Shown piece by piece: positions 36,097 to 39,000 of a DNA stretch of 64,000 bases. The stretch spans positions 283,032 to 347,031 of the forward strand of contig CAZYUH010000001.1 in NCBI GenBank assembly GCA_964650645.1, written 5' to 3'. How positions within the stretch are numbered: the first letter of the stretch is position 1; each line of letters begins with the position of its first letter. Position numbers and translations under genes: made by a program. Under the pieces are notes generated by a model. The model did no database searches and had not been told where the DNA came from. It saw only the letters and a program-made list of their open reading frames with translations. Source of the DNA: an uncultured Candidatus Saccharibacteria bacterium. Lineage in GTDB: Bacteria > Patescibacteriota > Minisyncoccia > Phycocordibacterales > SBAW01.

Positions 36097-39000
36097 ATGG
36101 ACGACCCCAAGCAGGGAGGCGAGGAGCTCAAGCATCACACCCCGAAGCCCAAAAGCTCGCTCGCGGCGCGCGAAGAAGAGGTCCTGGCGTTCTGGCAGCG
36201 CGAAGGCATTTTTGAGAAAACCCTGGAAAAGCCCGCGCCGCGCGGCGAGTTCACTTTTTACGACGGGCCGCCGTTCGCCAACGGCCTGCCGCACTACGGC
36301 CACCTGCTGGCTTCCGCTATAAAGGACGCCATCCCGCGCTACCGCACCATGCGCGGCTACCGCGTGCCGCGCCGCTGGGGCTGGGACTGCCACGGCCTGC
36401 CGGTGGAGAACCTCGTCGAGCGCGAGCTGGGGCTTAAAAGCAAGCGCGACATAGAGGCCTACGGCATAGAGAAGTTCAACGCGGCGGCGCGCGTCAGCAT
36501 CATGAAGGACGTGGCTGACTGGAAGCGCATCATCCCGCGATTCGGCCGCTGGGCCGACATGGAGCACGGCTACAAGACCATGGACACGGGCTACACAGAG
36601 TCGGTGTGGTGGTCGTTCAAGTCGCTGTTTGACAAGAACCTCATCTACGAGGGCTTCAAGTCCCTGCACTACTGCCCGCACTGCGGCACGACGCTCTCGA
36701 ACTTCGAGGTCGCGCAGGGGTACAAGGACATCGACGATCTCGCGGTCTTCGTTAAGCTCCCGCTGGTCGACGAGCCGGGCGCTTCGCTTTTGATATGGAC
36801 CACGACGCCGTGGACCCTGCCGGGCAACGCGGCGGCGGCGGTCAACGCCGATGCGCTGTATAGGAAAGTCAGAAGCGGAAGCGAATTGCTTATTGTTGCT
36901 CAAGACAGAATCTCAAATGTATTTGCCGATCAGGACAAAATTGAATTAGAGGGATTGCCCATAACAGGCAAGGAGCTGGTAGGAAAGAGATATCTGCCGC
37001 CGTTCGATTACTTCAAGGACGAGCCGCACAAGCATAGGGCGCATGCGTGGAAGGTGTACGCCGCGCCGTTTGTCACCCTCGACAGCGGCACGGGCATCGT
37101 GCACATTGCGCCCGCGTTCGGCGCCGAGGACCTTGAATTGGCGCAGAAGGAGAACATACCGCTCATCCATCATGTGACCGATGAGGGCAGGTTCAGCGCG
37201 CAGGTCGCGGACTTCGCGGGCCTGACCGTAAAGCCCAAGGGCAATCCGCGCGAGACCGACGAGAAAGTGGTCGCGTTCCTGGAAGGCAAGGGCGCCTTGT
37301 TCAAGAAGGAGCTTTCCAAGCATTCCTACCCGCACTGCTGGCGCTGCGACACGCCTCTCCTTAACTGGGCGGCGACGTCGTGGTTCGTATCGGTGCAGAA
37401 GGTGAAGGGCACGATGGCGGCGCAGAACGCCAAGGTGGGCTGGGTGCCCGACCACATAGGCCACGGCCGATTCAAGAACGGCATCGAGACCGCGCCGGAC
37501 TGGGCGATATCGCGCTCGCGCTACTGGGGCGCGCCCCTGCCGGTGTGGCGCAACGCGAAGACCAAGGAGGTGCGGGTAATAGGCTCGGTGGACGAGCTCT
37601 TGTCCATGACGAGGCGCTCGGGCAACCGCTACTTCGCGATACGCCACGGGCTCGCCCAGCACAACCTGGACGGCACCGCCGCCTCTACCGACGCGACGCC
37701 GTCAAAGCTCGTCGAGGAGGGCAAGGTGCGCATACGCGCCTCCGTGCAGGAGCTCAAGAAAGAGAAGATAGACCTTATAATCACGTCGCCCCTGTTGCGC
37801 ACCAAGGAGACCGCTAAGATAATTTTACGCGAGCTCGGCCTGCCCGACTCGGCTCTTATGGTAGACGAGCGCCTGCGCGAGGTGGGCTTTGGCGTGTACG
37901 AGGGCAAACCGATAACACAGTGGCGCGCTTTTTATAACGGATTTGCCGAGCGCTTCGAGAAGGCGCCCGAAGGCGGCGAGACGTACATGGACGTGCGGCG
38001 CAGGGTGGGCGACTTCCTGTTCGAGATAGAGAAGCGCTACAGCGGCAAGAATATCCTCGTCGTCTCGCACATACGCCCCTTGTGGATGCTCAAGCACATC
38101 GCCGCGCGCACTCCGCTTGAAGATATGAAGCGAGACGACGGGGAAGAGCCGGTCAAGAACGCTCTTGCCGAAGAGCTGCCGTTCGCGCCGTTCCCGCATA
38201 ACGGGGACTACGAGCTCGACCTGCACCGCCCGTACATAGACGAAGTGCCGATGGGCAACAGTATGGAGGGGGAATGGAAGCGCGTCCCCGACGTATTCGA
38301 CTGCTGGTTCGAGTCGGGCTCGATGCCGTTCGCTTCCAATCACTACCCGTTCGAGAAAGGCGCGTTCAATCCCAAGGGGTTCCTAGGGCTTGGTACCAGG
38401 CGCTATCCGGCCGACTTCATCGCCGAGGGCCTCGACCAGACGCGCGGGTGGTTCTACTCGCTCATCGTTCTGGGTGCCGCGCTCTTCGGGAAGGCGCCGT
38501 ACAAGAACGTCATCGTGAACGGCCTCGTGCTCGCGAGCGACGGCCAGAAGATGAGCAAGAAGCTCAAGAATTATCCCGACCCGATGGAGGTCGTGGAGAA
38601 GTACGGCGCTGACTCCCTGCGCTACTACATGCTCGCCTCGCCGGTCGTGAGGGCCGAGGATCTGCGCTTCAATGAGCGCGGGGTGGAGGAGGTGCAGAAG
38701 AAGCTCCTTATGCGCCTGGACAACGTGCGCAGCTTTTACGAGATGTACGCGGCGCAGGGCGGCGCTGCCGCGCCGCAGGCAAGCGGCGCGCTCGATCGCT
38801 GGATCTTCTCGCGCCTCGCAGAGCTGGTGCGCGACACGACCGCGGGCTACGAGAGCTACCAGCTCGACCTTGCCGTGCGGCCGCTCGGCGCGTTCATAGA
38901 CGACCTTTCGACATGGTACCTGCGCCGCTCGCGCGACCGCTTCAAGGAGGACGGCGCGGACAAGGAGGCCGCGCTCGCGGTCCTGCGAGAGGTGCTCTTA

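Follow-up and report, generated by a model that had tools for sequence, protein, structure and literature searches.

A predicted histidine phosphatase domain nested in the CP3 subdomain of isoleucyl-tRNA synthetases of Paceibacteria

Introduction

Why should the gene for an isoleucyl-tRNA synthetase (IleRS) encode what looks like a second enzyme in the middle of the catalytic core? This question is raised by ileS in a stretch of 64,000 nucleotides (the window) of contig CAZYUH010000001.1 (positions 283,032 to 347,031, forward strand; assembly GCA_964650645.1), from an uncultured Candidatus Saccharibacteria bacterium placed in Patescibacteriota by GTDB. In the window, ileS is a single unbroken open reading frame (ORF) of 1154 amino acids at 36097..39561 on the + strand. 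A preliminary description, made from the sequence and a list of ORFs, had proposed that its product carries an inserted histidine phosphatase (RHG) domain between two conserved blocks of the synthetase.

Insertion of a catalytic domain in a connective-peptide loop has an established precedent in the CP1 editing domain of IleRS, ValRS and LeuRS. To our knowledge, this editing domain is the only well-known nested catalytic module of the aminoacyl-tRNA synthetases. CP1 is universal in those enzymes, has another fold and hydrolyses aminoacyl esters, whereas the insert studied here is lineage-specific, belongs to the histidine phosphatases and lies in CP3.

Results

A histidine phosphatase match within an otherwise ordinary IleRS

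Residues 514-679 of the ileS product (37636-38133, + strand) matched Pfam His_Phos_1 (PF00300) with E=1.1e-32 and 113.8 bits, against a gathering cut-off of 21.7 bits. The profile search suggested in the preliminary description was thus significant, and the inserted domain that it had proposed was confirmed. Its region, 37600-38200, corresponds to residues 502-701, i.e. to the insert, and the motifs it had named were all where it had placed them: RHG at residues 516-518, SPLLRT at 564-569, VSH at 656-658, PLPVW at 480-484 and DCWFESG at 735-741. The spacing from PLPVW to DCWFESG is 250 amino acids in this IleRS.

Alignment with the solved IleRS of Thermus thermophilus (1ILE) paired residues 25-503 with its residues 13-478, and residues 707-1035 with its residues 488-820. 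Because residue 503 pairs with 478 and residue 707 with 488, about 203 residues stand in place of about 9. We delimited the insert, which consists of the phosphatase domain and its linkers, as residues 504-706 (37606..38214, +). Its GC content was 0.59-0.60, a slight dip from about 0.65 in the flanks. Upstream of it, residues 1-503 (36097..37605, +) carry the first half of the Rossmann fold, the CP core, the CP1 editing domain, CP2 and the first half of CP3. Downstream, residues 707-1154 (38215..39561, +) carry the second half of CP3, beginning with DLHRPYID at 708-715, the second half of the Rossmann fold, and the anticodon-binding and C-terminal domains. The same layout was seen with Pfam, in which tRNA-synt_1 was matched in two separated stretches (E=6e-130), followed by Anticodon_1 (900-1043) and by DUF5915 at the C terminus.

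By its motifs, the synthetase is a normal, editing-competent IleRS of type 2, the eukaryote/archaeal-like kind. It scored 858.2 bits with the ileS equivalog model TIGR00392 of NCBIfam (cut-off 621.4). The class I motifs HYGH (the HIGH motif; residues 66-69, 36292-36303, +) and KMSKK (the KMSKS motif; 818-822, 38548-38562, +) were intact, as were the CP1 editing motifs WTTTPWT (234-240) and GTGIVH (331-336). All were invariant or nearly so in 87 close orthologs. The type assignment followed from E values of 1e-204 to 6e-209 against 1ILE, 8WND and 8C8U, compared with 1e-91 against the type 1 enzyme of Staphylococcus aureus. The domain order and signature motifs resemble those of 1ILE, of Priestia megaterium IleRS2 (8C8U/8C8V) and of the yeast enzyme (8WND), and the alignment runs from end to end save for the insert. 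Compared with these type-2 enzymes, the window protein has about 200 extra residues in CP3, which form the predicted second enzyme, and lacks the zinc-binding cysteines of CP3, which T. thermophilus and many relatives have kept. The model of MupA/MupB, the mupirocin-resistance IleRS, gave 636-697 bits, below its exception cut-off of 1900.

Predicted fold and active site

The insert is predicted to be an autonomous histidine phosphatase domain of branch 1, about 190 amino acids in length. Modeled alone with AlphaFold, it reached a pLDDT of 94.4 and a pTM of 0.91. In the full-length model (mean pLDDT 82.6, pTM 0.71), blocks of the insert had values of 88-96 and both linkers 86-92. A Foldseek search with the full-length model ranked IleRS2 structures first and recovered only IleRS structures, so that it was not informative for the insert. 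With the insert alone, the relatives were small branch-1 histidine phosphatases, with TM-scores of 0.72-0.80 and 24-29% identity: the riboflavin-pathway phosphatase 9MMH, PspA, glucosyl-3-phosphoglycerate phosphatase (GpgP), CobC, PhoE and TIGAR. A sequence search of the PDB with the insert agreed, with PspA as the top match (E=1.6e-11). The insert matches PhoE (1H2E), PspA (4IJ5), CobC (6NRU/6E4B), GpgP (4PZ9) and 9MMH in fold, size and catalytic residues; these enzymes are free-standing, whereas the insert is nested in another enzyme.

Conservation was analyzed in two sets, the 87 close orthologs mentioned above and a diverse set of 76 full-length orthologs from species-representative genomes that were 39-67% identical to the window protein. 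In the diverse set, R516, H517, N523, S564, R568 and H658 were invariant (76 of 76). R516, H517, S564 and R568 were likewise present in all 87 close orthologs, and H658 in 86. Position 595 was Glu in 74 and Asp in 2 of the diverse orthologs, and Glu in 83 and Asp in 4 of the close ones. A motif in the linker, F696/P700/H701/N702, was conserved in the close orthologs. From what is known of the superfamily, we take R516 and R568 to be the phosphate-binding arginines, H517 the nucleophile, E595 the general acid and H658 the second histidine. In the window, the RHG motif with the predicted phospho-accepting H517 lies at 37642..37650, SPLLRT with the predicted second phosphate-binding arginine at 37786..37803, the predicted general acid E595, which would donate a proton to the leaving group, at 37879..37881, and the predicted second catalytic histidine H658 at 38068..38070 (all +).

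The complete retention of the catalytic residues favors a working enzyme over a relic, and the insert is probably catalytically active. The preliminary description had named structure prediction as a check on whether the insert is an independent fold. The prediction gave a separate, confident domain in which the catalytic Arg-His, Arg, Glu and His are conserved.

The insertion site

In all the insert-bearing IleRS examined, the insertion point was identical: after the helix of 'IGSxxEL' (IGSVDELL, residues 495-502 in the window protein, in the first half of CP3 ahead of the insert, within 36097..37605, +) and before 'ELDLHRPYID'. This point falls between two CxxC pairs that most relatives keep, whether they bear the insert or not. 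The domain is nested at the tip of CP3, at a point that in these relatives separates the halves of a Cys4 zinc knuckle. In L084 and L086, the loop has only 6-7 residues in place of an insert. All four cysteines were lost from the window IleRS and from its closest relative, L004 (residues 480-503 and 707-735; 37534-37605 and 38215-38300 in the window). The region is named the CP3 subdomain, and the Thermus enzyme has a zinc-binding motif there (PMC7191050). In yeast IleRS, the linker between CP2 and CP3 lines the pocket for the CCA end of tRNA (PMC7955072). This linker is about 20 residues upstream of the insertion point.

Distribution of the architecture

The insert in IleRS is a clade-wide feature and not an assembly artefact. 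A scan by sequence pattern of one genome per GTDB species found a confirmed relative of the insert in at least 340 species genomes of Paceibacteria (Patescibacteria), and the survey of orthologs thus found the same insertion, in one reading frame, across this group. All of the 120 best full-length homologs (59-99% identity) had the same combination of Pfam domains as the window protein. Their source labels were Adlerbacteria, Kaiserbacteria, Nomurabacteria, Paceibacterota, Minisyncoccia or Patescibacteria. One of the homologs (P0095), from independent ENA data, has 1154 amino acids and is 99% identical to the window protein. When 1.84 billion representative proteins were searched exhaustively, 905 of them matched the insert at E<=1e-10.

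The preliminary description had allowed for a separate phosphatase gene spliced into ileS by a frameshift or mis-assembly. This was excluded by the clean ORF of the window, the 99%-identical independent protein, and the related loci: in 79 of 80 fetched loci, one tblastn segment spanned the N-terminal part of IleRS, the insert and the C-terminal part in a single frame. On three long-read metagenome contigs, the ileS gene calls were broken up with the insert still in frame with its IleRS flanks. These breaks look like sequencing errors because the insert was in frame and argS was fragmented too.

Standalone homologs beside ileS

Among standalone homologs, those closest to the insert (P0007 and P0010) were about 41-42% identical to it and were encoded between argS and an ileS that lacked the insert. 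We examined 81 standalone loci, obtained by a metagenome scan seeded with the four closest standalone proteins (80 loci) and combined with earlier loci. In 65 of the 81, ileS was downstream on the same strand, directly adjoining in 57 of these 65; the flank was too short to judge in 10. The standalone gene usually began only a few bases from the stop codon of argS. Two kinds of ileS were found beside it, about 50% and about 33% identical to that of the window, and the divergent kind passed the ileS model.

Around the inserted form, a second histidine phosphatase was found within 6 kb on either side in none of 80 insert-bearing genome loci, and no other histidine phosphatase was found in the 64-kb window. 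In a neighbor-joining tree, the inserted and standalone forms made up one clade, apart from more distant and mostly standalone members of the family. One lineage (L087) has both: a standalone copy lies directly upstream of an ileS that itself carries the insert. Upstream in the same locus (241-2745), genes for Ppx-GppA, a NUDIX hydrolase and a HIT-family protein form a run of nucleotide-phosphate hydrolases directly ahead of ileS.

Insert-bearing ileS had argS upstream in 55 of 67 judgeable loci. In the window, argS (34447..36054, +; Pfam tRNA-synt_1d, DALR_1 and Arg_tRNA_synt_N) is separated from ileS by a geneless gap of 42 nucleotides. In many other insert-bearing loci (L009, L010, L012 and others) the gap is 300-1000 nucleotides or more, and its content is not a recognizable histidine phosphatase. 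One locus (L003, 1937-4022) has a TnpB/OrfB_IS605-like gene and a Cas1 gene between argS and ileS. On the other side, recO was directly downstream of ileS in 50 of 80 related genome loci. In the window, it lies at 39554..40132 (+; Pfam RecO_N and RecO_C), its start overlapping the end of ileS by 8 nucleotides.

The standalone phosphatases are basic, with a median net charge of +16 over about 190 amino acids (+7.5 per 100 amino acids), compared with -2 for the main inserted clade; the neighboring IleRS and ArgRS had +0.9 and +2.6 per 100 amino acids (loci L092-L169). We considered this positive charge as a sign that tethering had replaced binding to RNA or to a partner, and dropped the idea, as charge tracks the clade: in L159, L163 and L165, inserts that nest in the standalone clade are as basic as the standalone proteins.

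Evolutionary origin

The most economical origin would be capture or duplication of a neighboring phosphatase gene, between argS and ileS, into the CP3 loop. The lineage with both copies may be an intermediate of such a duplication. Bootstrapped neighbor-joining trees of the IleRS core and of the phosphatase domain each called for three or more changes between the inserted and the split state. Either there was more than one clean event, then, or recombination played a part. A single clean insertion is unsupported by these trees, which are crude and which we do not regard as decisive.

Recurrence in ValRS and in unusual IleRS

One to four His_Phos domains were found in 71 of 120 ValRS homologs, of which those with named taxa were mostly from Gracilibacteria or Peregrinibacteria. 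One ValRS (P0262) has four, and one insert-bearing ValRS is present on 12 contigs. This set of ValRS comprises P0262, P0367-P0484 and locus L174 (5001-8303). Most of the domains follow the DWxISRQ motif by about 15 residues, which places this main site in the equivalent of CP3; another site precedes DWxISRQ, and some inserts lie before CP2. Thus, the fold and the CP3 site are shared with the window IleRS. The ValRS inserts differ in forming a clade of their own, often in tandem, and in the absence of an adjacent standalone gene among the loci seen. This clade is as distant from the IleRS inserts as are ordinary family members, which points to an acquisition independent of that in IleRS. Some ValRS copies are degenerate: the general-acid Glu was lost in 26 of 86 and the second His in 10 of 86, while the phosphate-binding Arg-His and Arg were kept. 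No phosphatase gene was found beside valS in two loci whose valS lacks the insert, and we rejected capture of a neighboring gene for ValRS on this ground.

Among the best matches of the insert in the search of representative proteins, several IleRS carried additional domains. Two (P0288 and P0312, 1419 amino acids) have the CP3 phosphatase and a second one just before the anticodon-binding domain; the cluster of P0312 has six members, on contigs of up to 1.06 Mb. Another (P0335) has, in addition to the CP3 phosphatase, a P-loop kinase-like domain at residues ~735-935, in a loop between 'SGSMPYA' and 'PADFIAEG'. Its matches to AAA_18, AAA_33 and Zeta_toxin exceeded the respective cut-offs only slightly. 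The pairing of kinase and phosphatase recalls RNA end-healing enzymes; it was seen in this single sequence.

A foreign catalytic domain, a GNAT acetyltransferase, is also a feature of the IleRS described by the model NF040702 (ileS_w_GNAT). The window protein scored 306 bits with this model against a cut-off of 1999, and no acetyltransferase was found in it by Pfam. A relative, the IleRS-like P0327 (1066 amino acids), has both domains: a segment of an IS200-type Y1 transposase in the editing region, the CP3 phosphatase and a terminal GNAT domain. It may be a read-through or a truncated gene call.

Gene neighborhood of the window

The window carries a block of housekeeping genes at 27609-47494. 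It encodes a ThyX-like protein of 457 amino acids, a dCTP deaminase of 443 amino acids with an extra C-terminal domain, SHMT, a DUF2914 membrane protein, ArgRS, IleRS, RecO, a DUF11/cohesin-like protein of 657 amino acids, a class II synthetase (tRNA-synt_2b), a short MetRS of 481 amino acids and TatD. Elsewhere in the window, at 12172-22731, about 10 kb of DNA contains eight dispersed tRNA genes, every one on the + strand.

Discussion

One chain would here hold two enzymes, a type-2 IleRS and a branch-1 histidine phosphatase. Our preferred reading, in which our confidence is evenly balanced, is that the nested domain is an active phosphomonoesterase with phospho-His517 as its intermediate and with a functional tie to the synthetase. 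In this mechanism, the phosphate of a phosphomonoester would be gripped by R516, R568 and H658. Attack on it by H517 would yield the phospho-histidine, and the leaving group would take up a proton from E595. Tethered near the mouth of the synthetic site, the phosphatase would act on a phosphorylated species of nucleotide type that the synthetase binds or makes. Candidate substrates are a 3′-phosphorylated tRNA end, AMP and pyrophosphate; the preliminary description had suggested an adenylate or a nucleotide by-product, some other target, or a regulatory module. The architecture, the independent fold, the conserved catalytic residues, the spread across the clade, the relation to the neighboring gene and the convergence in ValRS are direct results of the analysis; the activity, its coupling to aminoacylation, the substrate and the direction of the evolutionary event are inferences. 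A functional tie is favored because the phosphatase is linked in an operon to IleRS of two types, because its inserted and standalone forms are nearly mutually exclusive, and because nesting arose independently at several sites and in two synthetases.

Several points weigh against a functional tie of this kind. The nearest solved relatives are free-standing phosphatases of small molecules, whose likeness to the insert would fit a housekeeping role equally well, and no model of a characterized subfamily was matched at its cut-off. In the usual alpha/beta topology, the active site and the two termini of the domain should lie at opposite ends of the sheet. Because of this topology, the phosphatase pocket would be predicted to point away from CP3, contrary to direct channelling. 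CP3 may simply be a permissive loop, and genome-reduced bacteria may fuse genes often; the recurrence could then reflect tolerance and not benefit. The neighbor-joining trees are simple, with short internal branches, which limits what they can say about the number and direction of events. Finally, the charge of the standalone proteins cannot serve as evidence of RNA binding because the inserts of L159, L163 and L165 are equally basic.

The most serious alternative is a passenger fusion. A phosphatase with a housekeeping task unconnected with aminoacylation, for example one of metabolite or nucleotide salvage, might by chance have been encoded beside ileS and been fused into a tolerant surface loop. 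After the free copy was lost it would have been kept because its loss would do harm, by constructive neutral evolution, with fixed 1:1 co-expression as the sole gain. We regard this as a real possibility, though not the probable one. It is consistent with the small-molecule substrates of PspA, GpgP, CobC, PhoE and the riboflavin-pathway phosphatase, and with a neighborhood rich in genes for nucleotide metabolism and synthetases (dCTP deaminase, ThyX/ThyA, SHMT, ArgRS, a class II synthetase and MetRS). Since an inserted and a standalone form are hardly ever present side by side, the function needs no covalent attachment. The insert has also evolved somewhat faster than the IleRS core: mean pairwise identity among the 76 diverse orthologs was 41% for the insert, 52% for the synthetase core and 48% for the editing domain. 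However, another phosphatase lineage entered the same subdomain of ValRS without a neighboring gene as its source, a second phosphatase domain is present at another site in some IleRS, and the adjacency of the genes persists across two divergent types of IleRS. Such recurrences exceed what one accident predicts.

A bolder form of the functional tie would make the domain a third catalytic site in tRNA charging. Close to the acceptor-end pocket, it would strip a blocking phosphate from the 3′ end of tRNA or destroy a product such as pyrophosphate, and it would have been gained independently by IleRS of Paceibacteria and by ValRS of Gracilibacteria and Peregrinibacteria. Possible blocking groups are a 3′-phosphate left by ribonuclease damage and a 3′-pyrophosphate added by toxins homologous to RelA/SpoT. 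In either case, IleRS or ValRS would be repairing or licensing the substrate that it charges. At present we consider this specific proposal rather doubtful.

The fold might instead persist without turnover, as a pseudo-enzyme or binding module that recognizes phosphate, serves a structural purpose such as a grip on tRNA phosphates, or acts as a regulatory sensor. The degenerate ValRS copies, without the Glu or the second His, do indicate that a synthetase can retain this fold after part of the catalytic set is gone. The IleRS lineage, in contrast, keeps its catalytic residues including the general acid, apart from the conservative change of E to D, and a pure binder would not need them. We consider this alternative improbable; a non-catalytic role is unlikely for the IleRS lineage and may apply to the degenerate ValRS copies. 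The idea of a domesticated, inactive module, which the preliminary description had raised, is disfavored for the same reason, the complete conservation of the catalytic residues.

It is very unlikely that the insert is simply this organism's copy of a known enzyme, whether cofactor-dependent phosphoglycerate mutase (dPGM), PspA, CobC or SixA. PspA was the best PDB match, SHMT is encoded two genes upstream, and weak NCBIfam matches were obtained. However, the insert scored only 73.7 bits with dPGM_arch (cut-off 225), 69.0 with CobC (TIGR03162; 162.9) and 54.4 with PspA (NF045917; 350), all far below the cut-offs, and SHMT is not a conserved neighbor in the standalone loci. GpmB likewise gave 36.7 bits against 261, so that by these models the insert is not a phosphoglycerate mutase of the cofactor-dependent kind. 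The SixA model (TIGR00249; cut-off 74.5) did not match the window protein and gave 39.5 bits with the standalone P0007, and the standalone homologs were below the cut-off in every model of a characterized phosphatase subfamily. The assignments to dPGM, CobC, PspA, SixA and GpmB were all rejected on these scores. Membership in a defense system was rejected as well: none of the anti-phage defense profiles of PADLOC-DB matched the insert or its standalone homologs.

An artefact or a mobile insertion (mis-assembly, a frameshift, or an intein-like or transposon-borne element) is hardly credible, since the fragmented ileS calls of the three long-read contigs, which would suit it, keep the insert in frame and are accompanied by a fragmented argS, the ORF of the window is clean and 79 of 80 loci are in a single frame, no splicing or endonuclease domain was found by Pfam, and the dip in GC is slight.

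Among known fusions, the RNase H/acid phosphatase of the Rv2228c type (NF005567), which was in the match list with 79 bits, also joins a CobC-like phosphatase to an enzyme acting on nucleic acid. It differs in being an end-to-end fusion with another partner, and the score of the window protein falls far short of the required 326 bits. No description of a phosphatase in either IleRS or ValRS was found in the literature searched, including the text of a 2026 preprint on 96,219 IleRS and the AARS Online paper. The sequences are already public under automatic names ('isoleucyl-tRNA synthetase', 'class I tRNA ligase family protein'), while their shared feature seems, from the literature searched, to have gone undescribed. 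In practice, many such proteins are labeled by the NCBI pipeline merely as 'class I tRNA ligase family protein'.

What the locus presents is a complete second enzyme, as predicted, within the catalytic core of an essential synthetase, its catalytic residues intact in species that number in the hundreds and are uncultivated. That the free gene and the insert nearly exclude each other in this sample amounts to a link of the Rosetta-stone type between phosphatase and IleRS. If the domain is only a passenger, the family would still be a clear example from nature of a gene that ended up inside a loop of the one next to it. If the phosphatase does act on tRNA ends or on products of the reaction, an aminoacyl-tRNA synthetase would have, built into it, quality control or repair of its substrate in a form not seen before.

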